Notes: generated from the letters alone by a model not told the origin. A stretch of 64,000 nucleotides of DNA from an uncultured Maribacter sp. (GCA_964353165.1 CAYGUY010000012.1:453-64452), one strand, 5' to 3'. Positions 6,477 to 51,390 are shown, counted from the stretch's first letter. Made by a program: numbers and translations.

Positions 6477-7820
6477 ATGCGATATATTTTACTTTTTATA
6501 ATCGGATTTTTCTTTTTTTCCTGTGAAAAGGAAGATGAGTTGGGCATGCCGGATCTTGGTCAAAATACATTTTTGGGGGAAGTGGCATGGATAAAAACAT
6601 TTGGCGGTACCGGGGAGGAAACTGCACAAGCGATTATAAGCACACTAGATGGCGGTTATGCGGTACTAGGATTTACGAATAGTACAGACGGAGATATTCA
6701 AAACAAATCGATTCCCGTAAACGATTACTGGTTGTTAAAGTTTGATGCCGAAGGAAATCTTCAATGGAACAAAACCTATGGCGGTAGCAAGGATGATCGA
6801 GGGCAAAGTTTGGTACAGACCCAAGATGGTGGTTTTGCCTTGACCGGTTATGCCATGAGCGATGACGGCGATGGTTCCGTAAATAATGGATTTCATGATA
6901 ATTGGGTCATAAAGGTCGATGCCCAAGGCGAATTGCAATGGGAAAAGAGTTTTGGATTTTCTGGGCATGACCATTCGTATGACATTATAGAGACACTAGA
7001 TAGTGGTTTGTTTTTTACTGGTTTTTTAGACATTACATCGGCGAGGGCGGACGGTCTTACTGAAAAGCATGGTTCATTGACCAGACATGGGGTCGGGGAA
7101 TTTTGGGGCACTAAAATCGATGCTACCGGAGCATTACAATGGCGAGGCTACTTTGGAGGTACCAACAATGACAGGGCACATGCCGTAGTGCAATCGGATG
7201 ACGGTGGTTTTGTAATGACAGGGTTTTCTGAGAGCAATGACTTTGATATCAGCAGTACCCAAGGTAGTTATGATTTTTGGATGGTAAAGATAGATAGTAA
7301 TGGAAACCTGCTGTGGGAGCGTTCCTTCGGTGGCTCCGGAATAGAGATTTCCTATGATATCTCTAAAACCTTGGACGGTGGCTATGTCATCACGGGAAAT
7401 ACCTTTAGCACGGATGGCGATATAGCCAAAACCAACGGAGAATCCGACATTTGGTTGGTAAAGGTCGATAAAGACGGGAAAATGATTTGGGAACATACCT
7501 ACGGCGGTTCTGGATTCGACGCTGCACAAGCAGTCATTGCAAGTAAAAATGGAGGCTATTTTATAGTCGGAAATTCCAAAAGTACCAACAAGGATACGAC
7601 TGCTAATTATGGCGAAAATGATATTTGGTTGATAAAAACGGATGCTAGTGGAAACCTTGTATGGCAAAAATCGTTTGGCGGTTCGGGGTTTGATTTTGGC
7701 TTTGATGTCGTAGATCATCCGGACGGCAGTATTGTTCTGGTAGGGAAAATGGCAAGCAGCGATGTAGAAGGTGTGGTATCCAAAGGAAAATCGGATATTG
7801 TGATGATTAAAGTGAGGTAA
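6477..7820 (+). CDS. Lipoprotein with repeated W.K.(F/Y)GG(S/T)..D units (probable beta-propeller)
   Basis: Lipobox FFSC; about 7 internal repeats of the form DxW(L/V)xKxDxxGxxxWxKxFGGSxxD. Confidence 0.8.
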   Translation: MRYILLFIIGFFFFSCEKEDELGMPDLGQNTFLGEVAWIKTFGGTGEETAQAIISTLDGGYAVLGFTNSTDGDIQNKSIPVNDYWLLKFDAEGNLQWNKTYGGSKDDRGQSLVQTQDGGFALTGYAMSDDGDGSVNNGFHDNWVIKVDAQGELQWEKSFGFSGHDHSYDIIETLDSGLFFTGFLDITSARADGLTEKHGSLTRHGVGEFWGTKIDATGALQWRGYFGGTNNDRAHAVVQSDDGGFVMTGFSESNDFDISSTQGSYDFWMVKIDSNGNLLWERSFGGSGIEISYDISKTLDGGYVITGNTFSTDGDIAKTNGESDIWLVKVDKDGKMIWEHTYGGSGFDAAQAVIASKNGGYFIVGNSKSTNKDTTANYGENDIWLIKTDASGNLVWQKSFGGSGFDFGFDVVDHPDGSIVLVGKMASSDVEGVVSKGKSDIVMIKVR

Positions 7821-7909
7821 GGGGACTGCCGATACCATCCATAAAAAAACCCTATGCAGTTATATGTTATAAAAATGTTAGGTTTTATGGAATAGCGGGA
7901 CTTATCACA

Positions 7910-7917
7910 TATATTTG
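7910..7917 (+). promoter_or_regulatory. Bacteroidota -7 promoter box of the suf operon
   Basis: TATATTTG matches TAnnTTTG, 30 nt upstream of the sufA ATG. Confidence 0.65.
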
Positions 7918-7922
7918 TAAAC

Positions 7923-7943
7923 TATTTAGACCAAATCCAATTA
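7923..7943. promoter_or_regulatory. Degenerate palindromic operator (TATTTAGA-N5-TCCAATTA)
   Basis: Two mismatches in the right arm relative to the perfect palindrome at 54369-54389; lies just downstream of the -7 box. Confidence 0.4.
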
Positions 7944-7947
7944 AGAG

Positions 7948-8277
7948 ATGATTCAAGTATCTGAAACGGCAAAAAAGAAAGTCATAGACCTCATGACAGA
8001 GGGTGGCTTTGATGCAGCCAAGGATTATGTTCGTGTAGGCGTAAAAAGCGGCGGATGCAGCGGCTTGTCCTACGAACTGGATTTTGACAACAAAGTCCAA
8101 GAGAGCGATAAACTTTTCGAAGACAACAATGTACGTATCGTAGTAGATAAAAAGAGTTTTTTATATTTAGTGGGTACAGTTTTGGAGTACTCGGGAGGCT
8201 TGAACGGCAAGGGATTTGTTTTTAACAATCCCAATGCCCAACGTACCTGCGGTTGCGGGGAGAGTTTTTCGTTGTAG
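7948..8277 (+). CDS. sufA: A-type Fe-S carrier (HesB/IscA/SufA family)
   Basis: GGCSGLSY and CGCGESF motifs; first gene of the suf operon. Confidence 0.92.
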   Translation: MIQVSETAKKKVIDLMTEGGFDAAKDYVRVGVKSGGCSGLSYELDFDNKVQESDKLFEDNNVRIVVDKKSFLYLVGTVLEYSGGLNGKGFVFNNPNAQRTCGCGESFSL

Positions 8278-8367
8278 ACCTTAATAGTGGTTAGATTGAG
8301 AGCTTTTAGGATTCTAAATAGATGAGATTTAAGATTGTGAAGTAATAAATTATAATAAGAACAAATT

Positions 8368-8393
8368 CTCCCTTTGGGGGATAAAAGGGGGCT
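8368..8393 (+). repeat. G/C-tract REP-like element, family 1, copy 1
   Basis: CTCCCTTTGGGGGATAAAAGGGGGCT; related copies at 9844-9867 (inverted) and 51369-51390. Confidence 0.6.
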
Positions 8394-8394
8394 T

Positions 8395-9840
8395 ATGGCA
8401 TATACGGAAGAGGAATTAAAGAAAGAGCTGGAAACAAAGGAGTATGAGTACGGGTTTTACACAGACCTAAAGTCGGAAACTTTTCCAAAGGGCTTGAACG
8501 AGGATATTGTGAGGGCTATTTCCAAAAAGAAAAACGAGCCGGAATGGATGACGGAGTGGCGCATAGATGCCTATCGTATTTGGGAGCAAATGGAAGAACC
8601 GGAATGGGCAAACGTCCGTTACGAAAAACCTGATTTCCAAGCGATCAGCTATTATTCCGCACCAAAACCCCCGGACCCGAACAAAAGCTTGGACGATGTA
8701 GACCCAGAACTGTTGGAGATGTACCGTAAGCTGGGTATATCCGTAGATGAGCAAAAAAAATTGCAGAACGTGGCGGTAGATATCGTAGTAGATTCTGTTT
8801 CTGTAGCCACTACATTTCAGAAAACACTCGCAGAAAAGGGAATTATTTTTATGCCTATCTCAGAAGCGATTCAAAAACACCCGGATTTGGTTCAAAAATA
8901 TATGGGTACGGTAATCCCTAAAAAGGACAACTTCTACGCAGCATTGAATTCCGCTGTTTTTACAGATGGTTCTTTTTGTTACATCCCAAAGGGAGTCCGT
9001 TGCCCAATGGAGCTTTCTACGTATTTTAGAATTAACGAGGGAGGTACGGGACAGTTTGAGCGTACCTTGGTTATAGCTGACGAGAGTAGCTACGTAAGTT
9101 ATTTAGAGGGTTGTACGGCGCCATCACGAGATGAAAATCAATTGCATGCCGCTGTTGTAGAGCTTATAGCCTTGGACGACGCTGAAATCAAATACTCGAC
9201 TGTACAGAACTGGTATCCTGGAAATAAGGAAGGTAAAGGCGGAGTTTACAATTTTGTTACGAAAAGAGGACTTTGTGAAAATCGTTCCAAAATCTCATGG
9301 ACTCAAGTAGAAACAGGTTCAGCAGTTACTTGGAAATATCCTTCTTGTGTGCTAAAAGGTGATAATTCCATTGGAGAGTTCTATTCGATTGCCGTAACCA
9401 ATAACTATCAGCAAGCGGATACGGGTACCAAAATGATTCACTTAGGAAAAAACACCAGGAGTACGATCATATCCAAGGGAATATCAGCCGGAAAATCACA
9501 AAACAGCTACAGGGGATTGGTGCACATCAGTTCCAGGGCAGAGAACGCTAGAAACTTTTCGCAATGTGATTCTTTATTAATGGGCAACGAATGCGGGGCA
9601 CATACATTTCCATATATCGAAGCAAAAAACAAAACGGCGCAGGTAGAACACGAGGCAACTACCAGTAAAATTGGCGAGGACCAAATTTTCTACTGTAACC
9701 AAAGGGGCATAGATACCGAAAAAGCCATTGCCTTGATCGTTAACGGTTTTAGTAAGGAAGTATTGAACAAGTTACCAATGGAATTTGCAGTGGAAGCGCA
9801 AAAATTATTGGAAATAAGTCTGGAAGGATCTGTAGGGTAA
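8395..9840 (+). CDS. sufB: Fe-S cluster assembly scaffold SufB
   Basis: [17 protein letters not shown]-like segment, [49 protein letters not shown]. Start taken at ATG 8395. Confidence 0.97.
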
Positions 9841-9843
9841 TAA

Positions 9844-9867
9844 AGACCCCTATCCCCCAAAGTGGGA
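9844..9867 (-). repeat. G/C-tract REP-like element, family 1, copy 2 (inverted)
   Basis: AGACCCCTATCCCCCAAAGTGGGA; its core TATCCCCCAAAG is the exact reverse complement of 8372-8383. Confidence 0.6.
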
Positions 9868-9873
9868 ATAAAT

Positions 9874-9931
9874 TGTCATTCTGAAAGGTGTTGAAGGTTG
9901 TTAATGTTTCGTCCTGAGCGAAGTCGAAGGA
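9874..9931 (+). repeat. REP-like element, family 2 (CTGAGCG.AGTCGAAG) with a degenerate upstream copy
   Basis: GTCCTGAGCGAAGTCGAAGGA at 9911-9931, GTCATTCTGAAAGGTGTTGAAGG at 9874-9896; related copies at 42795-42855. Confidence 0.6.
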
Positions 9932-9969
9932 CAAGTTAAGATGGTTTGCCAAACTAGTTTAAAACAAAA

Positions 9970-10857
9970 ATGAAAAAAGTACTATACATAGGATTGATTG
10001 CAGTAATGGCTTTCTCCTGCAAAGAAGCTAAAAAGGAAAATACAGACACAGCTGTTGAACCGGTTGCCGAGGCCGTTCTAAAACCCAAGATAAAACTCTA
10101 CACCTTTAGCGGGGGCACGGTTGGGGTAAACAACCTGGAGCTTTTTTCCCAAGACACCACATATCAAGGTCAGACCAAGGAATTTGCCGATCCCTTTTAC
10201 GTGATTATGCACCCAAAAGGAAATTTGATGTGGGATGCCGGTTTGCCGGAAATGTTAGTTGGTATGCCAGAACCATTTACGCCACCACCGGGAGCTTTTT
10301 CGGTATCGCGGCAAGATTCTGTCATAAGCCAATTGAAACAAATTGGAATGACGCCAAAGGATATAGATTTTATAGCGCTCTCCCACACCCATTTTGACCA
10401 TAGTGGCCATGCCAACGTTATGCATGAGTCCACCTGGTTGGTTCAAGAGGCGGAATATGGCATGATAACCAGCGATGAAATTAAAAATGGTGAAAATGCG
10501 GGTTTGTACGAAGCCATCAAAGAGCTTAAAAATGTAAAGCAGTTAAATGGGGATTACGATGTGTTCGGTGATGGAACGGTAATTATCAAATCCATGCCCG
10601 GACATACACCCGGACACCAAGTATTGTACTTGGACCTTGCCGATCACGGACCGCTTTTGCTTACGGGAGATTTGTATCATTTGTATGAAAACAGGGAATA
10701 CAAAAGAGTTCCTAGTTTTAATTATGACGTAGCCCAGACTCTAACCAGTATGGATGCTTTTGAAGCTTTTGCCAAAGAGAAAAATGCAAAAGTGTATTTA
10801 CAACATCAAAAAGAAGATTTTAACAAAATGCCTAAGGCACCTGAATATTTAAAGTAG
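9970..10857 (+). CDS. Metallo-beta-lactamase-fold N-acyl-homoserine lactonase family lipoprotein
   Basis: HTHFDH (HxHxDH), PGHTPGH, LLTGDLYH and terminal H motifs of the AiiA/MomL-type family; lipobox FSC at residue 17. Confidence 0.8.
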   Translation: MKKVLYIGLIAVMAFSCKEAKKENTDTAVEPVAEAVLKPKIKLYTFSGGTVGVNNLELFSQDTTYQGQTKEFADPFYVIMHPKGNLMWDAGLPEMLVGMPEPFTPPPGAFSVSRQDSVISQLKQIGMTPKDIDFIALSHTHFDHSGHANVMHESTWLVQEAEYGMITSDEIKNGENAGLYEAIKELKNVKQLNGDYDVFGDGTVIIKSMPGHTPGHQVLYLDLADHGPLLLTGDLYHLYENREYKRVPSFNYDVAQTLTSMDAFEAFAKEKNAKVYLQHQKEDFNKMPKAPEYLK

Positions 10858-10863
10858 AACATC

Positions 10864-11616
10864 ATGTTGATAATTAAGGATTTACACGCACAAGTAGAGG
10901 ATAAAGAAATTTTAAAAGGGATAAACTTAAAGGTAAATGCCGGTGAGGTTCATGCTATAATGGGTCCTAACGGTTCCGGTAAAAGTACCTTGGCATCCGT
11001 AATTGCCGGGAAAGAGGAATTTGAGGTGACCAAAGGTTCGGTTAGTTTGGAGGGAGAAGACCTTGAAGACGTATCACCGGAGGAAAGAGCGCACAAAGGG
11101 GTGTTTCTTTCGTTTCAATATCCGGTTGAAATCCCTGGGGTTTCCGTAACCAACTTCATGAAAACCGCAATCAATGAGACTAGAAAAGCAAAAGGGATGG
11201 AAGATATGCCCGCTAACGAGATGTTGAAGTTGATCCGTGAGAAATCGGAATTGTTGGAAATAGACCGTAAATTTTTGTCCCGTTCCTTAAATCAAGGATT
11301 TTCGGGGGGTGAAAAGAAGCGTAATGAAATATTCCAAATGGCTATGCTAGAACCCAAAGTGGCGATTTTGGATGAAACGGATTCTGGACTGGATATTGAT
11401 GCACTTCGTATTGTTGCCAATGGGGTAAATAAACTTAAGAACAAGGACAATGCGGTAATCGTAATTACCCACTACCAAAGATTGTTGGATTATATCGTAC
11501 CCGATTTTGTACACGTTATCCACAACGGAAAAATCGTAAAATCCGGCACCAAGGAATTGGCTTTGGAACTGGAAGAAAAAGGATACGATTGGTTGAAGGA
11601 AGAAGCTACTGTTTAG
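10864..11616 (+). CDS. sufC: Fe-S cluster assembly ATPase SufC
   Basis: Walker A GPNGSGKST, FSGGEKKRNE signature, ILDETDSGLDIDAL, ITHYQRLL. Confidence 0.97.
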   Translation: MLIIKDLHAQVEDKEILKGINLKVNAGEVHAIMGPNGSGKSTLASVIAGKEEFEVTKGSVSLEGEDLEDVSPEERAHKGVFLSFQYPVEIPGVSVTNFMKTAINETRKAKGMEDMPANEMLKLIREKSELLEIDRKFLSRSLNQGFSGGEKKRNEIFQMAMLEPKVAILDETDSGLDIDALRIVANGVNKLKNKDNAVIVITHYQRLLDYIVPDFVHVIHNGKIVKSGTKELALELEEKGYDWLKEEATV

Positions 11617-11780
11617 TCCGCAGTAAGCAGTTGCGTTATGCAGTTGAAAGCTGTTAACTGAAACTGACTTTCTAAGACTGGTTAGAGATATTGATAAGTA
11701 ATAACATGAATTATAGTAGGTTATAGTAGGAAGCGGTTAGAAACTGCCAACTGCTACTCCCAACTGCCAACTGAAACAGT
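11617..11780. repeat. Short-repeat-rich sufC-sufD spacer
   Basis: CAGT(A/T)-type units on the left (11620-11646), TTATAGTAGG x2 tandem (11711-11730), AACTGCCAACTG x2 (11742-11753 and 11762-11773) complementary to the left units. Confidence 0.6.
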
Positions 11781-13097
11781 ATGGATTTAAAAGACAAATT
11801 AATTTCTTCCTTTATGGCATTCGAGAACAACGTGGATGTGGAGCATCCGGTTCACGATGTTCGTATGGAGGCGATAAAGAATTTTGAGCACAAAGGTTTT
11901 CCTTCCAAGAAAGAGGAGGCTTGGAAATACACTTCGTTGAATAGCTTGCAAAAGATAGATTTCAGTATTTTTCCAAAACAGCATAATACGATTGAGTATA
12001 AGGACGTAAAAAAGTATTTTATCCACGAAATAGATACATATAAAGTGGTATTTATTGATGGCGTATACAGCTCCCATCTTTCGGAAACCACACACGATGG
12101 GGTAGATATCTGTCTCATGAGTTCGGCTTTGACCAAACCCATGTACAAGCAGATTGTGGACGTGTACTTTAATAAAGTGGCATCAAAAGAAGAATCCTTG
12201 ACCACATTAAATACGGCATTTAGTAGGGAAGGTGCATATATTTATATACCTAAGAACAAAATGCCCAAGAAACCGGTGGAAATCCTTCATTTTGCAACCG
12301 GTAACGAGGCATCCTTGATGTTACAGCCTAGGAACCTTATCATTGTTGAGGAGAATGCAGAGGTTCAGATTATAGAACGCCATCAAAGCTTAACCACCAA
12401 TAATGTTCTTACCAATTCTGTAACGGAAATATTTGCCGCTGAGAACGCGATAGTAGATTACTACAAAATTCAGAACGATACCGAAAATGCATCATTGATA
12501 GACAACACCTATGTAGATCAAAAAAGCAAGAGTCACGTAAAAGTCCATACCTTTTCTTTTGGAGGAAAGTTGACACGTAATAACCTTAACTTCTATCAGA
12601 ATGGGGAGTATATGGATTCTACTATGAAGGGAGTTACGATTTTGGGCGAAAAACAACACGTAGACCACCACACCTTGGTACATCATATTCAACCCAACTG
12701 TGAGAGCCATCAAGATTACAAGGGGATTTATGGCGACAGTTCAACTGGAGTTTTCAATGGGAAAATCATCGTAGATAAGATTGCCCAGAAAACCAATGCA
12801 TTTCAAAAGAACAACAATATTTTGATCAGCGATAAGGCCACCATCAATACCAAACCCCAATTGGAGATTTTTGCCGATGACGTAAAATGTTCCCACGGGT
12901 GTACTATTGGTCAATTGGATGAAGATGCCTTGTTTTATATGCAATCGAGAGGAATTCCTAAGAAAGAGGCGCGTGCCTTGTTAATGTACGCTTTTGCGAA
13001 TAATGTTCTAGAGAGTGTTAGCATTCCCGAAGTGAAGGCAAGAATCAATAAATTGATAGCCAACAAGTTGGGTGTTAGTTTAGGGTTTGATTTATAG
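11781..13097 (+). CDS. sufD: Fe-S cluster assembly protein SufD
   Basis: EAWKYT, PNCESHQDYKGI, FNGKIIV, KPQLEIFADDVKCSHG motifs. Confidence 0.96.
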   Translation: MDLKDKLISSFMAFENNVDVEHPVHDVRMEAIKNFEHKGFPSKKEEAWKYTSLNSLQKIDFSIFPKQHNTIEYKDVKKYFIHEIDTYKVVFIDGVYSSHLSETTHDGVDICLMSSALTKPMYKQIVDVYFNKVASKEESLTTLNTAFSREGAYIYIPKNKMPKKPVEILHFATGNEASLMLQPRNLIIVEENAEVQIIERHQSLTTNNVLTNSVTEIFAAENAIVDYYKIQNDTENASLIDNTYVDQKSKSHVKVHTFSFGGKLTRNNLNFYQNGEYMDSTMKGVTILGEKQHVDHHTLVHHIQPNCESHQDYKGIYGDSSTGVFNGKIIVDKIAQKTNAFQKNNNILISDKATINTKPQLEIFADDVKCSHGCTIGQLDEDALFYMQSRGIPKKEARALLMYAFANNVLESVSIPEVKARINKLIANKLGVSLGFDL

Positions 13098-13101
13098 AGA
13101 C

Positions 13102-13764
13102 ATGATTTACAATACCACTACATATAAAAGAGCCGTTTTAGTAACGGCTCTTTTTATGTTTTTATGTCAGGCGGTAAGCGCTCAGGAAACCCGATTTGGC
13201 GTGAAAGCTGGTGCAAATTATTCTTCTATAGTAGGTGACTTAACTCAAGGTTTAAAATTTCGGTTTTCCGCTCATGGCGGTATTTTTTTGGAAATCGATT
13301 TCTCCGATAAATTCAAGCTACAACCCGAGTTATTATATTCCTCCCAAGGCTTTCAGTTTAGTACAGATTTGGCGGAAATCCAAAATGGCGGAGTGGTCGC
13401 TGACGGTAACGACCTTAGGACTAACGTGCAATTGAATTTTATTACTGTTCCTATCTTGGGAAAATTTGCTTTAAATGACAAATTCGATGTAGAATTTGGT
13501 CCGCAGTTCGGGTTTTTGCTCAACCAGGTAACTAGAATCAAGGACTTGGATCAGTCAGGCAATACAAATGCTGATAGAAGATCTTCCATTTCCGGGGAGT
13601 TTCAGTTGGATTACGGTGCGGCTGTAGGTCTTGGCGTGAAACTGATCGACAACTTATCGGTCTCCCCAAGATTTTATATCGGACTAAGAAACCGGCTCAA
13701 TGCCTTGGCAGGCGCACAAAACTACAACGCTGCCATTCAGTTGTCCATGAATTATATGTTTTAG
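13102..13764 (+). CDS. Outer-membrane beta-barrel (porin family, OmpA/PorT-like)
   Basis: Signal peptide ending SAQ; FGVKAGANYS, LQPELLYSSQG, ITVPIL, FGPQFGFLL; C-terminal Phe. Confidence 0.82.
   Translation: MIYNTTTYKRAVLVTALFMFLCQAVSAQETRFGVKAGANYSSIVGDLTQGLKFRFSAHGGIFLEIDFSDKFKLQPELLYSSQGFQFSTDLAEIQNGGVVADGNDLRTNVQLNFITVPILGKFALNDKFDVEFGPQFGFLLNQVTRIKDLDQSGNTNADRRSSISGEFQLDYGAAVGLGVKLIDNLSVSPRFYIGLRNRLNALAGAQNYNAAIQLSMNYMF
13126..13155 (+). terminator. Intrinsic terminator-like hairpin after sufD, inside the porin ORF
   Basis: AAAAGAGCCGTT-ttagt-AACGGCTCTTTTT: perfect 12-bp stem followed by T-rich sequence. Confidence 0.7.
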
Positions 13765-13830
13765 TTAAGTATGCAGGAAGTAGGCTTTAAAATTCATGTA
13801 CTACTAAAACAGTTGTTTGTTTTTAGAGCG

Positions 13831-13865
13831 AGATCCCAAAGGGGTTTCATAAACCTTTGAGATCT
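13831..13865. repeat. REP-like hairpin, family 3
   Basis: AGATCCCAAAGGGGTTT-cat-AAACCTTTGAGATCT, an imperfect palindrome in an intergenic position. Confidence 0.5.
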
Positions 13866-13979
13866 TTCGAATCCATACCCGATAATCTTTGCCTGATTAC
13901 CCGTAATCCTAGCAGTATAATGAAAGGTTCAAATTTATAATCAATACCAAGAAAATACCGTAGTTAAACCTACAGTAAG

Positions 13980-13987
13980 TATCTTTG
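13980..13987 (+). promoter_or_regulatory. -7 promoter box upstream of the truncated sufS copy
   Basis: TATCTTTG within GTATCTTTGTA; the same 11-mer precedes intact sufS. Confidence 0.65.
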
Positions 13988-14005
13988 TAACCCAAAGGAA
14001 TTGCT

Positions 14006-14161
14006 ATGTTTGATGTAACTAAAATAAGACAGGATTTCCCCATTTTAAAACGAGAGGTAAACGGAAAACCCTTGGTGTATCTGGATAATGCTGCTACCTC
14101 ACAAACCCCACAACAGGTCATAGATGTTATCGTGGATTATTATTCCAATTATAATCGTTAG
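14006..14161 (+). pseudogene. Truncated duplicate of the sufS 5' end (51 aa)
   Basis: [51 protein letters not shown]; 48 of the first 50 aa equal those of sufS at 15795; 14036-14127 is identical to 15825-15916. Confidence 0.93.
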
Positions 14162-14217
14162 TACAATTACCTGAGGGTCGGCTATGACTTTAATGTTTAC
14201 TTTAAGCTACATTGTCC

Positions 14218-14250
14218 ATATCATATCATAATCTATTTATGATATGATAT
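14218..14250. repeat. Perfect 14-bp inverted repeat
   Basis: ATATCATATCATAA-tctat-TTATGATATGATAT. Confidence 0.85.
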
Positions 14251-14487
14251 ATTAAGAAAAGAAAACAATGTTGGCAAAAACTTTTCTAGAGAGTCGGTCG
14301 CAATTCTAAAAAGGTAATGTTAGTGATTTACCTTTGTTATACAATAACTTTTTTTTACTTCCATTTGAAAGAAGCAACTACAAAATTGATTTTTTTGAAC
14401 AACTTTAAATTCACTCACCAAATTTTTAAAACTAACGATATGGAGCTTACCCCTTACTGCGCAGCCAACCGAAGATTCACAACGAAA

Positions 14488-15681
14488 ATGACAAAATGCT
14501 GGTTATTTCTTTTTGCTTCACTCTTTGTTTTCTTTGCAAAGGCCCAGATTTCTTATGAGAAGGGCTATTTTGTTGATAATGAAGGCAACAGAACGAATTG
14601 TTTAATTCGCAATGTCGATTGGATGAAGAATCCTTCAAGGTTCAGTTATAAGCTAACTGAAGTGACGGACGTAAAAAGCGCCGATGTAACCACAGTTAGT
14701 GAATTCGGTGTTGGTGAGGTCTTAAAATATGTTAGGGCGACCGTAATGTTAGATAGGACTAGTGATGAAATAGACAGGCTTACTTTAGTCAGAAAGCTCA
14801 ACACTAAGGAAGAAACTTTGTTTTTAAAGGCATTGATAGAGGGTGAAGCAAGTTTATACGTATATGAAGAAGCTGGAAAGCGCAATTATTTTTTTGCCAC
14901 AAATACTTCTGATATTCAACTGTTGCGCTACAAACGTTATATAAAGGAAGGTGAAAAGATAGCGGAAAATAATCAGTACAAGCAACAACTGTTAAATGCT
15001 TTGACCAAGTTCGGAGTAAGTAAAGGAGAAATAGAAAAGTTGGACTACCAACAAGAAAAACTTATGATGCTGTTTGAAAAAACTTTTGCTTCAAATAGGT
15101 CAGGCGACAAGTATTTTTCCAGTAAGGAAAGAAAAGATTTTTTTAATTTCACTCTACGACCTGGCCTTAAAAATTCTTCATTGACATTTCAAAGCCCAGG
15201 TGGCAATGGTCAAAGTACGGAATACGATGCTCAGTGGAGTATTCGATTTGGAGTAGAGTTTGAGGTTCTCATGCCTTTTAATAAAAATAAGTGGGCTATT
15301 ATAGCAGAGCCATCATACCAATATTATACAATTAAGCAATCCATAAGAGCCGATGATAGAGTTATTGGAGATGTAAATTACCGAACTATAGAAATTTCTT
15401 TAGGAGCAAGACATTATATGTTCTTAAACGCCAGTTCTAAAATTTTCATGAACGCAACTTATGTAGCTGGGTTTAGTGGAAATTCACGAATAGACTATAC
15501 AGGTGGTTTCACCTATCCTTTGTTAAATAGTAGTAACATTGCATTAGGCGCAGGGTATAAATTTAAGGACAAATATAGTGTCGAATTAAATTATGGTCTA
15601 AATCGATTTTTGACAAAGGACGTTTTTAGGGAAGCTATTTACACTAATTTTTCAGTTATTTTAGGCTATACATTGTTTTAA
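14488..15681 (+). CDS. AT-rich outer-membrane protein (N-terminal domain plus C-terminal beta-barrel)
   Basis: Signal peptide MTKCWLFLFASLFVFFAKAQ; GYFVDNEG N-terminus; alternating beta-strands; ends VILGYTLF. The ORF is open from 14317, so the start is uncertain (14440 or 14488). Confidence 0.75.
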   Translation: MTKCWLFLFASLFVFFAKAQISYEKGYFVDNEGNRTNCLIRNVDWMKNPSRFSYKLTEVTDVKSADVTTVSEFGVGEVLKYVRATVMLDRTSDEIDRLTLVRKLNTKEETLFLKALIEGEASLYVYEEAGKRNYFFATNTSDIQLLRYKRYIKEGEKIAENNQYKQQLLNALTKFGVSKGEIEKLDYQQEKLMMLFEKTFASNRSGDKYFSSKERKDFFNFTLRPGLKNSSLTFQSPGGNGQSTEYDAQWSIRFGVEFEVLMPFNKNKWAIIAEPSYQYYTIKQSIRADDRVIGDVNYRTIEISLGARHYMFLNASSKIFMNATYVAGFSGNSRIDYTGGFTYPLLNSSNIALGAGYKFKDKYSVELNYGLNRFLTKDVFREAIYTNFSVILGYTLF

Positions 15682-15768
15682 ATAATAGTTTTAGGTTTTG
15701 TTTTCCATTTCTAACTAATACCAACATCAATTCTGAGCTAATACTTCCTATTTGTAAGCCATACTCGG

Positions 15769-15776
15769 TATCTTTG
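15769..15776 (+). promoter_or_regulatory. -7 promoter box upstream of intact sufS
   Basis: TATCTTTG, 18 nt before the ATG at 15795 (same spacing as at the truncated copy). Confidence 0.65.
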
Positions 15777-15794
15777 TACAACAATATATTTGTT

Positions 15795-17009
15795 ATGTTC
15801 GACGTACAAAAAATCCGAAAAGACTTCCCCATTTTAAAACGAGAGGTAAACGGAAAACCCTTGGTGTATCTGGATAATGCTGCTACCTCACAAACCCCAC
15901 AACAGGTCATAGATGTGATTGTGGATTATTACTCCAATTACAATGCGAATATCCATAGAGGGGTGCATGCACTTTCCCAAGAGGCAACGGATAAGTATGA
16001 GCAGGCACGTCAGAAAATCCAGAAGCATTTTAATGCGAAGCATGTTTATGAGATTATCTATACCTCGGGCACTACGCACAGTATAAATATCGTGGCCAAT
16101 GGTTTTTCTTCCTTTATTAAAAAAGGAGACGAGGTCTTGGTTTCCGCCATGGAGCACCATTCCAACATTGTGCCATGGCAAATGCTTTGCAACCGCACCG
16201 GAGCAACTTTAAAGGTCATCCCTATGAACCAAGAAGGAGAATTGTTGATGGATGTGTACGATACTTTGCTTTCTAATAAAACAAAGTTGGTCTTCTGCAA
16301 CCATATTTCCAATGCTTTGGGAACCATTAACCCCGTTGCGGAAATCATTGAGAAAGCGCATAAAGTAGGTGCAGCCGTGTTGATAGATGGCGCCCAGGCC
16401 GCTCCCCATTTAATTGCAGATGTTCAAGCCTTGGATGTTGACTTTTATACCGTTTCTGCCCATAAGATATGTGGTCCTACAGGAGTAGGAATGCTCTATG
16501 GAAAAGAGGATTGGTTGAACAAACTACCGCCCTATCAAGGTGGTGGTGAAATGATTGCCGAGGTAACTTTTGAAAAGACGACCTATGCAGGCTTACCACA
16601 TAAATTCGAGGCAGGAACGCCTAACATTTGCGGCGGCATCGCTTTTGGTGCAGCTTTGGATTATATGAATACGATCGGTTTTGAGGCGATTGCTGCCTAT
16701 GAGCACGAACTATTGGAATATGCCACAGAGGAACTGTTGAAAATAGACGGACTCAAAATTTATGGTACCGCACAGCAGAAAACCTCGGTCATTTCCTTTA
16801 ATATCAAAGGAGTGCATCCTTATGATATCGGTACGATTTTGGATAAATTGGGTATTGCGGTACGCACAGGGCATCATTGTGCACAACCGATAATGGATTT
16901 CTATAAAATACCGGGTACGGTGCGCGCCAGTTTTAGTTTTTACAATACCAAGGAAGAAGTTGATGTACTAGTTTCAGGGGTGAAACGTGCCGCCGCTATG
17001 TTGGTATAA
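15795..17009 (+). CDS. sufS: Cysteine desulfurase SufS
   Basis: [30 protein letters not shown] (PLP lysine), FEAGTP, RTGHHCA (catalytic Cys). Confidence 0.97.
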   Translation: MFDVQKIRKDFPILKREVNGKPLVYLDNAATSQTPQQVIDVIVDYYSNYNANIHRGVHALSQEATDKYEQARQKIQKHFNAKHVYEIIYTSGTTHSINIVANGFSSFIKKGDEVLVSAMEHHSNIVPWQMLCNRTGATLKVIPMNQEGELLMDVYDTLLSNKTKLVFCNHISNALGTINPVAEIIEKAHKVGAAVLIDGAQAAPHLIADVQALDVDFYTVSAHKICGPTGVGMLYGKEDWLNKLPPYQGGGEMIAEVTFEKTTYAGLPHKFEAGTPNICGGIAFGAALDYMNTIGFEAIAAYEHELLEYATEELLKIDGLKIYGTAQQKTSVISFNIKGVHPYDIGTILDKLGIAVRTGHHCAQPIMDFYKIPGTVRASFSFYNTKEEVDVLVSGVKRAAAMLV

Positions 17010-17075
17010 GCTTCCCGTTATCATTCTCTTAAAGTGTTGAAATCCATCGTTTCTTATCGTACTTTTGTATAAACT

Positions 17076-17510
17076 ATGAAGATGAACATTAAAGAGATAC
17101 AGGAAGATATCGTAGCGGAGTTTGCCATGTTCGAGGATTGGATGCAGCGCTATGAATATATGATAGACTTGGGAAAATCCCTCCCGCTGATTGCCGAGGA
17201 ATATAAAACCGATGATAATATCATAAAAGGTTGCCAAAGCAAGGTATGGGTACATGCCGATTTAGAAGCCGATAAGTTAGTTTTTACCGCAGATAGCGAT
17301 GCGATAATTACCAAAGGAATCATAGCCATTTTAATACGCGCATTCAGCAATCAAAAACCACTGGATATTATTGAGGCAGACACCCAATTTATTGACGAAA
17401 TAGGATTAAAGGAACATTTGTCCGCAACCCGGGCCAACGGTTTGGTAAGCATGATCAAACAAATCAAGTTATATGCCGTAGCCTATCAAACACAATTAAG
17501 CAAAACATGA
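17076..17510 (+). CDS. sufE: Sulfur acceptor SufE
   Basis: RYEYMIDLGK, IKGCQSKVW, ADSDAIITKG, LSATRANGL; -7 box TACTTTTG at 17060-17067. Confidence 0.93.
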   Translation: MKMNIKEIQEDIVAEFAMFEDWMQRYEYMIDLGKSLPLIAEEYKTDDNIIKGCQSKVWVHADLEADKLVFTADSDAIITKGIIAILIRAFSNQKPLDIIEADTQFIDEIGLKEHLSATRANGLVSMIKQIKLYAVAYQTQLSKT

Positions 17511-17839
17511 GCGATATAAACACAGCAGCCGATAGCGAGGAGCTAGGAGAGAAAATAGTAAAGGTTTTAAAAACGATTTATGACCCGGAAATTCCGGTAG
17601 ATATCTACGAATTGGGACTGATATATGATGTATTGGTAAACGAGGATAATGAGGTAAAGATTCTCATGACCTTGACATCACCCAATTGCCCCGTAGCAGA
17701 AACTCTGCCCGTTGAAGTAGAGGAAAAGGTAAAATCCTTGAACGCGATCAAGGATGCAGAAGTAGAAATTACCTTTGATCCCCCTTGGACCCAGGATTTA
17801 ATGAGTGATGAGGCTAAATTGGAACTAGGAATGCTATAA
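17507..17839 (+). CDS. sufT: DUF59/SufT (PaaD-like) Fe-S assembly protein
   Basis: YDPEIPVDIYELGLIY, MTLTSPNCP, FDPPW motifs. Confidence 0.88.
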   Translation: MSDINTAADSEELGEKIVKVLKTIYDPEIPVDIYELGLIYDVLVNEDNEVKILMTLTSPNCPVAETLPVEVEEKVKSLNAIKDAEVEITFDPPWTQDLMSDEAKLELGML

Positions 17840-17897
17840 TGCGCCGTACATTTCATTTCCGAGAAGACGGATATCTTTATATTCAAACGCTATAACT

Positions 17898-18404
17898 ATG
17901 ACAGACGAAATCATAAACAAAGTAGCCCAGAGTAAACTGGTTACGTTTAATCTGGAAGACTACTATCCCAAAGGAGAGCGAAAAGTAATCGATTTAAAAG
18001 ATTGGTTATACGAAGGTTTTATTCTAAGGGAAAAGGAATTCAGAAACTTCCTTGCTGAATATAACTGGGAGCAGTATTCCAATGCATTCGTAGCTCTTAC
18101 TTGCAGTACGGATGCTATTGTACCCGGCTGGGCGTACATGTTGGTTACGACAAAACTGCAGCCTTATGCGAAAAAGATAGTACAGGGTAGTTTAGAAGAT
18201 TTGGAGACGAATTTATATCAAAATATAATAGCCAATTTAGACTTGTCTCCATATGTGGACAGCCCTGTAATTATTAAAGGTTGTAGTCATAAACCGGTAC
18301 CTCCAAACGCTTATTTACAGCTTACGGAGAGGTTAATGCCCGTTGCCAAATCCATTATGTACGGGGAGGCTTGCTCTTCGGTGCCTTTGTATAAAAGAAA
18401 ATAA
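17898..18404 (+). CDS. Conserved Bacteroidota protein (DUF2480-like)
   Basis: EIINKVAQS, LKDWLYEG, CSTDAIVPGWAY, IKGCS, MYGEACSSVP motifs. Confidence 0.75.
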   Translation: MTDEIINKVAQSKLVTFNLEDYYPKGERKVIDLKDWLYEGFILREKEFRNFLAEYNWEQYSNAFVALTCSTDAIVPGWAYMLVTTKLQPYAKKIVQGSLEDLETNLYQNIIANLDLSPYVDSPVIIKGCSHKPVPPNAYLQLTERLMPVAKSIMYGEACSSVPLYKRK

Positions 18405-18474
18405 AACCTATTTATTTGTTCCATAAAAGTGACTATTTGTACTTTTGCGTTTCTAAAAAAATAAACACTACATC

Positions 18475-19395
18475 ATGAAAAACATTTTTTTGATTATTGC
18501 GCTTGTATTTACCTGTGCTTATGGGTTCGCTCAAACAGAAGAGGAACTTAAATCACAACTAGGGACAAAGAAAGATTCCATTGCAGCTATCCAAGGTAGG
18601 GCAGATGCCATCCAAGGACAAATTGATGCACTTCCTGGATGGAAAAAAGGTGCCTTTGGTACTATTGGGGCTAACCTGAGTAGCTTCAATAATTGGTACG
18701 CCCAAGGAACACCAAATGTATCCTCAGGTAATATAGGTGTAACCGTAAACGCTTTTGCTAATTTGAACCAAGAAAAATTTTTCTGGAGAAATTCAGGAAA
18801 TATAAACCTAGGATGGGTAAAATTTGATGATACCGATATTGATACAGATGACGATAGTTTTAGACAAGCGGCAGATGTATTTACCATTTCATCTTTATAT
18901 GGGCGTAAAATCAGCGAAAAGTTCGCTTTCTCCGGTTTAGGAGAGTACAGAACTACCATTTTGGATAATTTCAACGATCCAGGTTACCTAGATTTAGGTG
19001 TGGGTGCTACTTGGACACCTATTGCTGACTTAGTGGTAGTTATCCATCCTTTAAACTACAACTTTGTATTTAGTAGTAACGACGCTGTTTTCCAATCTTC
19101 TTTGGGTGCTAAAATCCTTGCGGATTACACCAGACAAATTGGTAAAGTAAACTTTAAGACAAATTTTTCTATGTTCCAGAGCTATGAGAACGGGGATTTA
19201 TCCAACTATACTTGGATCAATTCTCTTGGTTATACCTTATGGAACGGTATAGGTCTTGGATTGGAGTTTGGTTTAAGAAATAACAAACAAGAGGCGTTAA
19301 ATTTTGCACAAGCTACTGACCCGGCAACTACGTTTGATAACGTAGATAATGCATTACAGACCTATTTCCTATTTGGTCTTAACTATGCCTTCTAA
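18475..19395 (+). CDS. Outer-membrane protein (DUF3078-like)
   Basis: Signal peptide, GWKKG, SFNNWYAQG, beta-strand pattern, C-terminal Phe; -7 box TACTTTTG at 18440-18447. Confidence 0.75.
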   Translation: MKNIFLIIALVFTCAYGFAQTEEELKSQLGTKKDSIAAIQGRADAIQGQIDALPGWKKGAFGTIGANLSSFNNWYAQGTPNVSSGNIGVTVNAFANLNQEKFFWRNSGNINLGWVKFDDTDIDTDDDSFRQAADVFTISSLYGRKISEKFAFSGLGEYRTTILDNFNDPGYLDLGVGATWTPIADLVVVIHPLNYNFVFSSNDAVFQSSLGAKILADYTRQIGKVNFKTNFSMFQSYENGDLSNYTWINSLGYTLWNGIGLGLEFGLRNNKQEALNFAQATDPATTFDNVDNALQTYFLFGLNYAF

Positions 19396-19423
19396 ATTAA
19401 TAGCATACTAAACCTTCTAAAAC

Positions 19424-19456
19424 AAAAAACCCTGCTCAAAAGAGCAGGGTTTTTTT
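19424..19456 (+). terminator. Intrinsic terminator (bidirectional)
   Basis: AAAAAACCCTGCTC-aaaa-GAGCAGGGTTTTTTT. Confidence 0.88.
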
Positions 19457-19875
19457 GGTTAAGTCATTATCGTAAAATTTGGGTTTTACTTTGGTTAAAG
19501 TTTTTATTGATTTGGGGTCAACACTATTACTTAAACACATGTCAAAGGTATGTCATCACTTCATTTTTTGAACAATTTATGTTGTGAAGGCATTCTATAA
19601 TGTTGTGAAAAATAGCAACGGTTTAAATTGATCGATGAACTACACAAATCGGTTTACAATAATTTGAAACGGACACTTTAATTCTGAGCGGGAAAGCAAA
19701 AATCAGACCTTAAAACTAGTGGTAAACGAAAATCGCTCTGTCCTTAGTGGCTTAGATTTAAAAATAGCCTATGCATTACTCTCTTAAAAGGAAAAAGCCT
19801 AGGCTAGTTTATGTTAAACTTAAAGTTTGCGTTATAAACGCTTTTACTCAACTTGTTTCAGTAAAAGGGCAAAAC

Positions 19876-21087
19876 TTAATACTCGTCCAAATGCTCGGGA
19901 TAGAGAAAATTGTTATAAGGAAACCGGGTTATGTGAATGTCCCGCACTTCGTCATATACCCGTTTTCTAAATTCGTCCAAATTTTCCTTGTTCAAGGCAC
20001 TGATGAACAAAGCACGGTCACCCACTTTTTCCATCCAGGTGCGTTTCCATTCTTCAATCGTAAAATGGCGCGAAGTACGCTCGGTAATCAAATCGTCATC
20101 TTCGATAGTTTCATGCTCGTACCTATCAATTTTGTTGAAAACCATGATGGTCTTTTTGTCCGAACTTTTTATTTCGTCCAAAATCTTGTGCACCGATGCT
20201 ATGTGCTCTTCAAACTGTGGGTGGGAAATATCTACCACATGTAACAACAAATCTGCTTCACGCACCTCGTCTAAGGTACTTTTAAAGCTTTCTACCAATT
20301 GGGTCGGTAATTTTCTAATAAATCCTACGGTATCGCTCAAAAGAAAGGGCAGGTTGCCTATGACCACTTTACGTACCGTAGTATCTAGGGTTGCAAACAG
20401 CTTATTCTCAGCGAACACATCACTCTTACTAATTACGTTCATCAGGGTAGACTTGCCCACGTTCGTATAACCGACTAGGGCAACACGTACTAAAGCACCG
20501 CGATTGCCGCGCTGAGTTTCCATCTGGCGATCTATCTTAAGCAGCTTTTTCTTTAAAAGGGTAATTCGATCACGGACGATACGTCTATCCGTTTCAATTT
20601 CTGTTTCTCCAGGTCCGCGCATTCCAATTCCCCCTTTTTGGCGCTCCAAGTGCGTCCATAGTCCGGTTAGTCTTGGGAGCAAGTATTCGTACTGCGCCAG
20701 TTCTACCTGTGTACGCGCATAGCTGGTTTGTGCCCGTTGTGCAAAAATATCGAGTATGAGGCTGGTACGGTCAATGATTTTACAACGGAGCTGCTTTTCT
20801 ATGTTCCGCTGCTGGGTAGGGCTTAGTTCATCGTCAAAGATTACGGAACCAATGTCATTCTCGTGTACGTAGGCCTCTACCTCCAAAAGCTTTCCGCTAC
20901 CAATAAGGGTTTTTGGGTTGGGTAAATCCATTCGCTGCACGAATCGTTTTATAACCTCGCCACCAGCAGTATAGGTAAGGAATTCTAGCTCGTCCAGGTA
21001 TTCTGTGACCTTATCTTCGCTCTGCTCCCTATTAATAATGCCAATAAGGACCGCTCTTTCGTAATCGACTGTTTTCTTTTCTATCAT
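19876..21087 (-). CDS. hflX: Ribosome-associated GTPase HflX
   Basis: IFAQRA, QVELAQY, GPGETEIETDRR, G1 GYTNVGKST, LFATLD, DTVG, NKID. Start taken at MIEKK (21087). Confidence 0.96.
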   Translation of the reverse strand: MIEKKTVDYERAVLIGIINREQSEDKVTEYLDELEFLTYTAGGEVIKRFVQRMDLPNPKTLIGSGKLLEVEAYVHENDIGSVIFDDELSPTQQRNIEKQLRCKIIDRTSLILDIFAQRAQTSYARTQVELAQYEYLLPRLTGLWTHLERQKGGIGMRGPGETEIETDRRIVRDRITLLKKKLLKIDRQMETQRGNRGALVRVALVGYTNVGKSTLMNVISKSDVFAENKLFATLDTTVRKVVIGNLPFLLSDTVGFIRKLPTQLVESFKSTLDEVREADLLLHVVDISHPQFEEHIASVHKILDEIKSSDKKTIMVFNKIDRYEHETIEDDDLITERTSRHFTIEEWKRTWMEKVGDRALFISALNKENLDEFRKRVYDEVRDIHITRFPYNNFLYPEHLDEY

Positions 21088-42745: not shown

Positions 42746-42794
42746 GAATTCATGTTTTTTTTAAAAAATAACAAAAAGTGTTGTTGGTTATAGT

Positions 42795-42855
42795 GTCACA
42801 CTGAGCGCAGTCGAAGTGCTTTACTTTATTACAAAATATTCGACTGCGGTCAGAC
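42795..42855. repeat. REP-like inverted doublet, family 2
   Basis: CTGAGCGCAGTCGAA (42801-42815) and TTCGACTGCGGTCAG (42839-42853), inverted with one mismatch; related to 9911-9931. Confidence 0.7.
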
Positions 42856-43196
42856 TTACATAGGACTTATGATTTGTTATTATCATCGTTATATCTAAGC
42901 TCACTTAAATTATTGCACCTGTAGAAAATCATGGATAATTGCTGGCAAATCAGAGTGCGTTTAAAAGAGAATTGGATTTCTGTAATTACTATGTGTTACC
43001 AAAACAGTTCGCAAAGAGAAAGGAAAATGCTCTAGCTTTTAAAATATTGAAACAAACATGTAGATAGGTCTAAATTCTTTTTCACTCCTAATTTGGATGG
43101 CTGAAAACACGTACAAAAAGTACGATTTACCATATGCGCTATCAGTTTGAGGAAGTTTCGGAGAAGAGGGATACTTGGAAATGGCGAAGTATCTTT

Positions 43197-51131: not shown

Positions 51132-51368
51132 ATTCTTTATAGTTGTTTGTCTTTGCAAGGCGCAAAGCTGCGATTTAGCTGCTTTGTAACGTGGCAACCT
51201 GACGAGGATTGTTAGATGATTTTAACAGTTTGCCGCATCATCTGGTTCCGCTGTAGCATAACTAAACGTCTCGCAAACACGTAGGTTCTTGTTTATTTCA
51301 AAATGCATCAATTACAATTAATTCATACAATCAATTATTTATTTTCTTCCACAACAATATTAATGTTA

Positions 51369-51390
51369 CCCCTTTGGGGGCTAGGGGGCT
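51369..51390 (+). repeat. G/C-tract REP-like element, family 1, copy 3 (contains the hemC-hemD stop codon)
   Basis: CCCCTTTGGGGGCTAGGGGGCT; shares CCCTTTGGGGG and AGGGGGCT with 8368-8393. Confidence 0.55.

Follow-up and report, generated by a model that had tools for sequence, protein, structure and literature searches.

Slot-specific envelope genes in the suf operon of Maribacter and their probable exchange through homologous recombination

The suf iron-sulfur (Fe-S) locus analyzed here belongs to an uncultured Maribacter sp. and occupies positions 7948-17839 of a 64,000-nt stretch of DNA (GCA_964353165.1 CAYGUY010000012.1:453-64452; hereafter, the window is this whole stretch). The source assembly comprises 3.9 Mb in 179 contigs with 3% contamination. 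Genes were identified by listing open reading frames (ORFs) and by profile searches with Pfam and NCBIfam models. Along the span, sufA, sufB, a lactonase lipoprotein gene, sufC, sufD, the outer-membrane protein (OMP) gene OMP225, a 5′ remnant of sufS, the gene OMP454, and sufS-sufE-sufT follow one another. We consider it probable that the locus combines a constant Fe-S backbone with old, slot-specific envelope cargo that is exchanged by homologous recombination, and that OMP454 was imported together with a foreign sufS 5′ end. The locus is an integrase-free, multi-slot recombination hotspot inside an essential operon, and its mechanism is of a known kind. An earlier description, made from the sequence alone (the sequence-only reading), had given the same order of genes and repeats, and the profile searches bore it out; the truncated sufS is real, and the 14-bp inverted repeat in front of OMP454 is perfect. 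Its statement that the 10-kb span lacks an integrase or transposase also holds. No integrase, transposase, or recombinase was found among the ORFs of at least 50 amino acids (aa) in 6500-20000, all of which are accounted for as suf genes, cargo, or shadow ORFs.

The same suf backbone is present in 60 other Flavobacteriaceae genera, each surveyed with one genome. The six junctions from sufA to sufT were occupied in 92 of 353 cases (26%). The genome studied here contains no NuoD, and the intended nuo operon was therefore unusable as a control; the atpB-E-F-H-A-G operon was examined instead in the genomes of 40 of the same genera. Its junctions were occupied in 4 of 200 cases (2%), three of them by a gene for a four-helix-bundle (4HB) protein at atpA/atpG (suf versus atp, Fisher p = 1.6e-15). 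A 3.2-kb insertion between atpH and atpA in locus L233 was the sole large interruption in the 200 atp junctions. At sufS/sufE, a META-domain-type lipoprotein occurred in 35 of the 60 genera and an M43 peptidase in 19, while sufB/sufC carried a 139-aa lipoprotein in 24 and the lactonase in 14. A 611-aa ABC-type exporter with a fused ATPase was found at sufT/DUF2480 in 5-6 genera (loci L187, L189, L194, L204, L206, and L212). The sufD/sufS junction held barrels and various other genes, some of them on the opposite strand. The 4HB family was the only one present at several junctions across the 60 genera; each of the other recurrent families was confined to one. The suf operon is unusually laden with extra genes, and because the cargo families are junction-specific across so many genera, most of this cargo must have resided in its slot for a long time and was not captured at random.

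Within the genus, suf loci were taken from 60 other Maribacter species (61 loci with our own), and the window proteins were mapped onto them. Changes of cargo were counted by parsimony on a tree built for 53 loci from eight genes of the core and the flanks. The backbone sufA-B-C-D-S-E-T-DUF2480-DUF3078 was constant, and the extra ORFs were all on the operon strand. The metallo-β-lactamase (MBL)-fold lactonase was located at sufB/sufC in 40 of the 61 loci. At sufD/sufS, the barrel gene O205 (205 aa) was found in 33 loci, OMP225 (O225) in 29, and relatives of OMP454 (O454) in four, so that the junction existed in the states none, O205, O225, O225 plus O205, or with O454 added. An M43 metallopeptidase with a 144-aa lipoprotein occupied sufS/sufE in seven loci, and a PspC-domain protein occupied sufT/DUF2480 in two. 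The 4HB gene was present at sufA/sufB (eight loci), sufC/sufD (one), and sufT/DUF2480 (two). The lactonase required one parsimony change, being missing only from a single 20-species clade with a fixed 62-nt spacer. OMP225 required 10 changes and O205 required 16, against a shuffled-label mean of 17; the 4HB gene changed 8 times for 8 presences, M43 5 times for 7, and OMP454 3 times for 3. Thus, one slot (lactonase) is vertically stable, and three (sufD/sufS, sufS/sufE, and sufA/sufB) are highly dynamic and distributed nearly at random on the tree. Fixed, vertically inherited cargo, against which the sequence-only reading had set its own proposal, describes the lactonase slot and not the three patchy ones.

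The manner of exchange could be read from pairs of species. In loci L068 and L054, the core genes differ by 22%, whereas O205 differs by 1.0% and the adjoining OMP225-type gene by 3.1%. A sliding identity comparison located the tract boundaries. Identity is ~80% in sufC/sufD, 91-100% from ~80 nt before the sufD stop codon through the whole cassette, and ~80% again beyond a point ~30-50 nt into sufS. Over the cassette itself, it amounts to 99-100%. In the sister species L065, sufD and sufS are separated by 42 nt without cargo, and identity on either side is 90-98%. Similar tracts were found in L052/L034, L058/L056, and L045/L042, two of which end within the first 50-80 nt of sufS. At sufA/sufB, the 4HB-occupied alleles of different clades have identical boundaries, and a comparison of occupied with empty alleles revealed neither a target-site duplication nor a shared recombination site. 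A 35-nt spacer is common to the empty alleles, and it could not have arisen from an occupied allele by deletion alone. Because the boundaries are identical, the duplication is absent, and the spacer cannot be recreated by deletion, the pattern fits allele replacement via flanking homology. Cargo is exchanged by homologous recombination anchored in the ends of suf genes. Through this ordinary process, slots are emptied, refilled, and traded between species, and the crossovers lie in the conserved terminal parts of the neighboring suf genes. No mobility gene was found in the variable regions, whose cargo consists of OMPs, lipoproteins, a peptidase, PspC, an ABC protein, and 4HB proteins.

The window itself carries a trace of import at sufS. 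The 177-nt remnant contains a −7 box (TATCTTTG) and sufS codons 1-50; its translation is identical to SufS at 48 of 50 residues and then meets a stop at 14159-14161 (codon 52). Relative to intact sufS, its codons show nine synonymous differences and two replacements. The two sufS 5′ copies form a mosaic. Their first 57 nt differ at 18 sites, of which 8 lie in the 27 nt preceding the ATG and 10 in codons 1-10; the following 91 nt are identical, and the final 29 nt contain four differences. At the 18 differing sites of the first segment, the base common to the six closest species is found in the remnant at 12 and in the intact copy at 2. The first segment of the remnant is 82-88% identical to five of the six closest relatives and 79% identical to the sixth (L019). 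That of the intact sufS reaches at most 72% with the same six, and its best match (82%) is L027, a member of another subclade. Because the remnant carries the bases of the clade in this segment while the nearest match of the intact copy sits in another subclade, these comparisons identify the remnant as the native sufS 5′ end, and the working sufS as opening with a promoter-proximal segment of foreign origin. The identical 91-nt core is best read as a crossover region that was presumably homogenized by gene conversion.

OMP454 lies between the two sufS copies. Its family is widespread in Bacteroidota but was suf-adjacent in only one of 80 fetched loci. No paralogue was found in its own genome, and no donor was found in 80 genome loci and a collection of 5.8 billion proteins, in which the nearest relative had 49% identity and no close relative was linked to suf. 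With a nearest relative of only 49% identity, the donor is therefore unsampled. The spacers at 13765-13978, 14156-14484, and 15682-15767 had no homologue in any fetched locus. The different origins of the two sufS copies are read directly from their bases, and from these we infer the event behind them. OMP454 would have entered together with the foreign promoter-proximal segment and 5′ end of sufS, displacing the native end. The event would have been imprecise, either a Campbell-type single crossover of a circularized fragment or a homology-facilitated illegitimate recombination; both give the observed layout and cannot be told apart by it. It would have left the native 5′ end as the 177-nt remnant, with the 91-nt core marking the crossover or a later gene conversion. 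Homology-facilitated illegitimate recombination was reportedly described by de Vries and Wackernagel in 2002. Like Campbell-type integration, it resembles the present case in that one homologous anchor, here the sufS 5′ end, is duplicated and the native copy truncated. The difference is the identical core, which calls for gene conversion after the event or for a donor of exceptional similarity.

The duplicated layout could also have been created by the assembly, either by collapsing two strains at the 91-nt core or by joining an insert-free chromosome to a 1.79-kb circle. The number of contigs and the contamination level leave room for such an error. Apart from two mismatches, 14098-15854 is matched by an independent Logan contig (run ERR3534969). 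The Logan contig/unitig stops exactly 30 nt into either core copy, a graph signature of a loop in which the path is not fixed. However, a simple chimeric join would leave one copy of the core and not two, and the assembled contig crosses both copies, with OMP454 nowhere else in the assembly. The truncated sufS runs on into unique sequence with a stop codon, and relatives of OMP454 lie directly upstream of sufS in other Maribacter species. A 1.79-kb circle without a replication gene would probably be no more than a product excised from this very tandem structure. We regard an artefact as highly improbable and retain the import of OMP454, with a tandem structure as the probable layout.

The lactonase slot has a published precedent. 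The sufB/sufC junction of Muricauda olearia Th120 holds momL, which encodes a secreted MBL-fold N-acyl-homoserine lactone (AHL) lactonase (Wang et al., Sci Rep 2017; PMC5484670). The gene was reported to be co-transcribed with suf and to be induced by iron limitation and H2O2, and the paper treated this gene order as peculiar to the one strain (PMC5484670). The lactonase of the window has a lipobox, AFSC (MAFSC in the translation), and an HTHFDH motif; it is separated from sufB by 129 nt and from sufC by 6 nt, and it matches AHL lactonases of the PDB at E = 5e-24. With the common slot, the HxHxDH motif, and the export signal, the protein is MomL-like; AHL-lactonase activity is predicted from sequence similarity. 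The two operons are alike in holding an MBL-fold lactonase gene with an export signal in the sufB/sufC slot. They differ in that the gene now described recurs through the genus and in other genera, as counted above, and that its slot is one of several.

An alternative is a purely vertical history, in which the accessory genes would be functional members of an ancestral Flavobacteriaceae suf/iron-stress operon and their patchiness would reflect loss only. Such a history accounts for the widespread, slot-specific families (META-like, 139-aa lipoprotein, M43, and MBL), for the single change of MBL in Maribacter, and for the distances of the M43, META-like, and MBL proteins, which track the core distances (Spearman 0.65-0.88). 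The co-transcription and induction of momL in M. olearia agree with it as well. However, it does not explain the near-identical O225/O205 cassettes of species whose core genes differ by 22%, next to a sister species whose site is empty. O205 and the 4HB gene are spread over the tree almost as if shuffled, the sufS 5′ end of the window is xenologous, and the 35-nt spacer of empty 4HB sites is not regenerable by deletion. Loss-only inheritance is already contradicted by the recombination tracts, and we consider it unlikely; recombinational exchange of long-resident cargo is preferred.

The 4HB genes, which encode proteins of the 23S-rRNA-IVS family (PF05635), behave differently from the other cargo. 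In relatives, they are found at sufA/sufB, sufB/sufC, sufC/sufD, and sufT/DUF2480. All those inspected are bracketed by inverted arrays of ~7-nt repeats; they comprise three in our own genome and six at Maribacter suf junctions (L023, L039, and L072 at sufA/sufB; L025 at both sufA/sufB and sufC/sufD; and L027 at sufT/DUF2480, where the arrays are least clear). Array-bracketed genes of our own genome include C133:1769-2202 and C4:87.7-88.0 kb, and the repeat sequence varies from cassette to cassette. A 4HB gene lies at atpA/atpG of this genome (contig C20, ~46.6-47.0 kb), as it does in 3 of the 40 other genera (L231, L235, and L245); the family repeatedly lodges inside essential operons. Array-like sequence is still present in the empty sufA/sufB allele of L040 and L036. 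Only these cassettes, bracketed by their inverted heptamer arrays, would shift between junctions.

The sufC/sufD spacer of the window resembles such a cassette. The C133 gene is bracketed by CAGTnnn / nnnACTG arrays, and strict array pairs of this type occur in the genome at C133 only. The spacer contains short tandem units in the same inverted CAGT/ACTG layout without an ORF, exceeds its counterpart in the closest relatives by ~90 nt, and is predicted to form a long hairpin (−39.5 kcal/mol). An alignment joins its right arm to the array at C133, and the same junction holds a 4HB gene in L025. The suf operon of the window differs from the PF05635 (Avd-like) 4HB cassettes in having no 4HB ORF and only this array-like spacer. 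On balance, we slightly favor the view that the spacer is an ORF-less remnant of a 4HB cassette. It may be the one true footprint among the repeats that the sequence-only reading had interpreted as footprints of insertion; the others have a different character.

Family 1 is a dispersed element of ~45 nt (consensus GCCCCCTAGCCCCCAAAGGGGGAA with flanks) that gave 43 nhmmer matches genome-wide. In 18 of the 43, a co-oriented ORF terminates no more than 14 nt from where the element begins; a few copies are inverted directly ahead of a start codon. The position after sufB also carries the element in the Maribacter loci L016 and L017. In other Maribacter species, distant ones included, it is found after the sufA stop codon and ahead of the sufB start codon at cargo-free junctions, and it was undetected at all eight gene-holding (4HB) sufA/sufB junctions of the genus. 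From this placement, family 1 is classified as a putative 3′-end hairpin element and not as an insertion scar. It may act as an mRNA 3′-end or intercistronic hairpin. A further copy is located at 51338-51409 of the window. Family 2 is a palindromic dispersed element with ~20-30 copies in the genome, in which ATGTCAnnCTGAGCGCAGTCGAAGnn is often paired with its inverse ~25 nt away; in its short stem, 2-3 bp beside the core covary between copies. The half-site at suf was missed by the profile search. A full element is present at 42776-42879 of the window, and four copies are clustered on contig C90. Both families can be classified by their distribution as genome-wide intergenic hairpin elements and not cassette boundaries.

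These repeat families were recovered solely via motif and profile searches. A blastn-short comparison of each suf intergenic spacer with the whole genome returned self-matches only at E < 0.01, and an Rfam scan of the window at gathering thresholds gave no match, the family-1 copies included. The hairpin at ~13830-13866, which the sequence-only reading had listed as a third repeat type, is present, but it occurs once in the genome and its fold is unexceptional (z = −1.0); it was rejected as a repeat family. The 14-bp palindrome (14218-14250) is also single in the genome and has a fold z of −4.5. Located upstream of OMP454 and inside the presumed imported segment, it may be an operator.

The same reading had suggested looking for a RAYT enzyme flanked by these repeats. 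A RAYT/IS200-like Y1 transposase gene is present on contig C114 of this genome (978-1445; PF01797 match 990-1334), and no copy of family 1 or family 2 was found on that contig. A RAYT link for the two families was consequently rejected. The gene is followed by GC-rich hairpins, GTCGCCCCTATGGGGC and TCGCTCCTAAGGAGC, which are unlike both families. Families 1 and 2 are similar to REP/RAYT systems in being short, dispersed, hairpin-forming, and intergenic, and family 1 is similar also in lying past stop codons and inside operons. They differ in that the clear RAYT-like gene is not flanked by them and that no link to gene insertion was found.

The sequence-only reading had taken the operon for a dedicated landing pad in which unrelated cargo is captured via short repeats, as in a cassette array. 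The excess of occupied suf over atp junctions, the three dynamic slots, and the lack of any mobility gene are as it would require. Two family-1 copies fall within the span where ~0.1 would be expected, 4HB genes with inverted arrays of their own are found at four suf junctions and at atpA/atpG, and the CAGT/ACTG spacer resembles those arrays. However, most cargo is ancient in its slot, and except for 4HB, each recurrent family keeps one junction over 60 genera. Family 1 flanks sufB, a core gene, recurs at cargo-free sufA/sufB junctions, and is missing from those occupied by 4HB. In the Maribacter loci tabulated, the dynamic slots number three, and families 1 and 2 are not tied to cargo. No repeat common to the cargo boundaries was found in the suf span, and the ends of the transferred tracts fall within sufD and sufS and do not coincide with repeats. 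Nor do families 1 and 2 accompany the RAYT-like gene. Repeat-mediated capture is therefore quite improbable, although the operon does carry an excess of extra genes; homologous exchange anchored in the suf genes is preferred.

A scan for sigma-70 promoters and intrinsic terminators gave numbers at or below the shuffled expectation and is uninformative for a Bacteroidota genome. The Bacteroidota −7 motif TAnnTTTG was scanned on the operon strand instead. It occurs upstream of sufA (a −7-like box at 7910, 38 nt upstream), both sufS starts, OMP454 (TACCTTTG at 14329), sufE, and DUF3078, and none was found ahead of sufB, the lactonase, sufC, sufD, or OMP225. The distribution suggests two predicted transcription units, sufA-to-OMP225 and sufS-sufE-sufT, bounded at sufD/sufS. 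If the boxes are promoters, sufD/sufS would tolerate the most varied cargo because it would be the boundary of the two units.

Several points weigh against the interpretation given here. Close relatives differ at ~10% of the positions of the 91-nt core, whereas the two copies in the window differ at 0 of 91; at this divergence, a native and a foreign allele would not be expected to agree so fully, and a later gene conversion must be invoked. Beyond the 3′ edge of the core, the four differences do not reveal which copy is native. The evidence for the import of OMP454 is the mosaic sufS 5′ end, and its donor was not found. The Logan contig confirms the loop, yet by itself it is also compatible with a chromosome plus an excised 1.79-kb circle. 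The species tree was built from genes of the suf locus, which themselves recombine, and the control comprised one operon (atp) in 40 genera. The evidence for the transcription units is an 8-mer motif. Finally, the span holds two family-1 copies where 0.11-0.16 would be expected (P ~0.005-0.01, post hoc), a mild enrichment over the genome background with which the sequence-only reading had contrasted this region.

The coordinates are collected in Table 1. Relatives of SufB align only from residue 6-8 of the ORF that opens at 8374, and the true start is probably the ATG at 8395, the mechanically assigned one being too far upstream. The OMP225 start at 13102 is 5 nt past the sufD stop codon. The OMP454 ORF comprises 454 aa, but the signal peptide opens at M57 and the mature protein would have ~380 aa; the start is probably not at 14317 but at 14485, as the signal peptide indicates, or at 14440, where an independent gene call puts it. 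The DUF2480 and DUF3078 genes act as fixed members of the locus wherever the fetched loci of the 60 genera reach that far.

Table 1. Coordinates of the suf genes, interleaved cargo, and repeats, counted from the first nucleotide of the window.
Feature	Position	Strand	Basis or remark
sufA, A-type Fe-S carrier	7948-8277	+	PF01521, TIGR00049
Family-1 copy, weak	8358-8400	-	nhmmer E 0.006; abuts probable sufB ATG at 8395
sufB	8374/8395-9840	+	NF008773, 906 bits
Family-1 copy, strong	9826-9896	+	nhmmer E 1.4e-8; directly past sufB stop codon
Family-2 degenerate half-site	~9903-9936	+	two mismatches to CTGAGCGCAGTCGAAG core
MomL-like MBL-fold N-acyl-homoserine lactonase-like lipoprotein	9970-10857	+	PF00753; AHL-lactonase NCBIfam models below cut-off
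sufC ATPase	10864-11616	+	TIGR01978, 366 bits
sufC/sufD spacer, inverted CAGTnnn / nnnACTG arrays	11617-11780	+	TRF units
sufD	11781-13097	+	TIGR01981, 294 bits
OMP225, 225-aa outer-membrane β-barrel, signal peptide	13087/13102-13764	+	PF13568, PF13505, translation
sufS 5′ remnant, 177 nt	13979-14155	+	88% identity to 15768-15944
91-nt core	14036-14126	+	identical to 15825-15915
14-bp inverted repeat, 5-nt loop	14218-14231 / 14237-14250		perfect match between arms
OMP454, PorT/OMP_b-brl-type outer-membrane protein	ORF 14317-15681	+	weak PF13505; C-terminal barrel
First 10 codons of intact sufS with the promoter-proximal segment, foreign	15768-15824	+	sequence matches to relatives
Intact sufS, cysteine desulfurase	15774/15795-17009	+	TIGR01979, 592 bits
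sufE	17076-17510	+	profile searches
sufT-like gene	17507-17839	+	profile searches
DUF2480 gene	17898-18404		3′ of sufT; likewise in 56/60 family-level loci
DUF3078 gene	18475-19395		after DUF2480; likewise in ~54/60 family-level loci

Gene turnover by homologous recombination in conserved flanks is known from the minimal mobile elements of Neisseria. Integrase-free hotspots of horizontal gene transfer flanked by core genes have also been described (Oliveira et al., Nat Commun 2017; PMC5635113). The suf locus is like both in having unrelated variable genes between conserved flanks, no mobility genes, and double homologous recombination. It differs from such hotspots in that several slots are combined in one essential, largely co-oriented operon whose adjacent suf genes are the flanks, that the crossovers lie in the last or first 30-80 nt of suf genes, and that the cargo is envelope-biased and slot-specific family-wide. 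With integron cassette arrays, it shares co-oriented, promoter-poor genes in series downstream of a promoter and a content that varies between relatives. In contrast to integrons, suf has no IntI, attI, attC, or common site at the cargo ends, and its cargo is interleaved with essential genes and mostly ancient in place. This intra-operon, slot-specific, envelope-biased, and family-wide form appears to be undescribed beyond the momL-suf report.

The sequence-only reading had noted that the cargo proteins are exported or envelope proteins, and nearly all cargo families proved to be of this kind. A signal peptide, lipobox, or membrane segments were found in 9 of the 11 recurrent families (P 0.0006-0.03 against a background of 30-50%, calculated post hoc). 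On the basis of this strong bias toward exported proteins, we tentatively raise the possibility, which we hold to be less probable than not, that suf is a selected, stress-inducible expression platform with exchangeable slots in Flavobacteriaceae, in which envelope and exported cargo such as the lactonase, the OMP barrels, lipoproteins of the META-like and other types, and the M43 peptidase is preferentially kept. Transcription of suf would rise under iron limitation or oxidative stress, and the cargo would then aid competition or envelope remodelling; the conserved ends of the suf genes would double as homology arms for swapping modules between species.

In this study, a single-strain report on momL and suf was widened to a family-wide pattern. 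An essential operon tolerates and keeps foreign genes in several internal slots and trades them by using its own genes as homology arms. The locus offers a testable case of accessory envelope functions that may be wired to a stress regulon without mobile-element machinery, and its slots may serve genetic work on marine Flavobacteriaceae as defined sites, neutral or expressed, for inserting genes.

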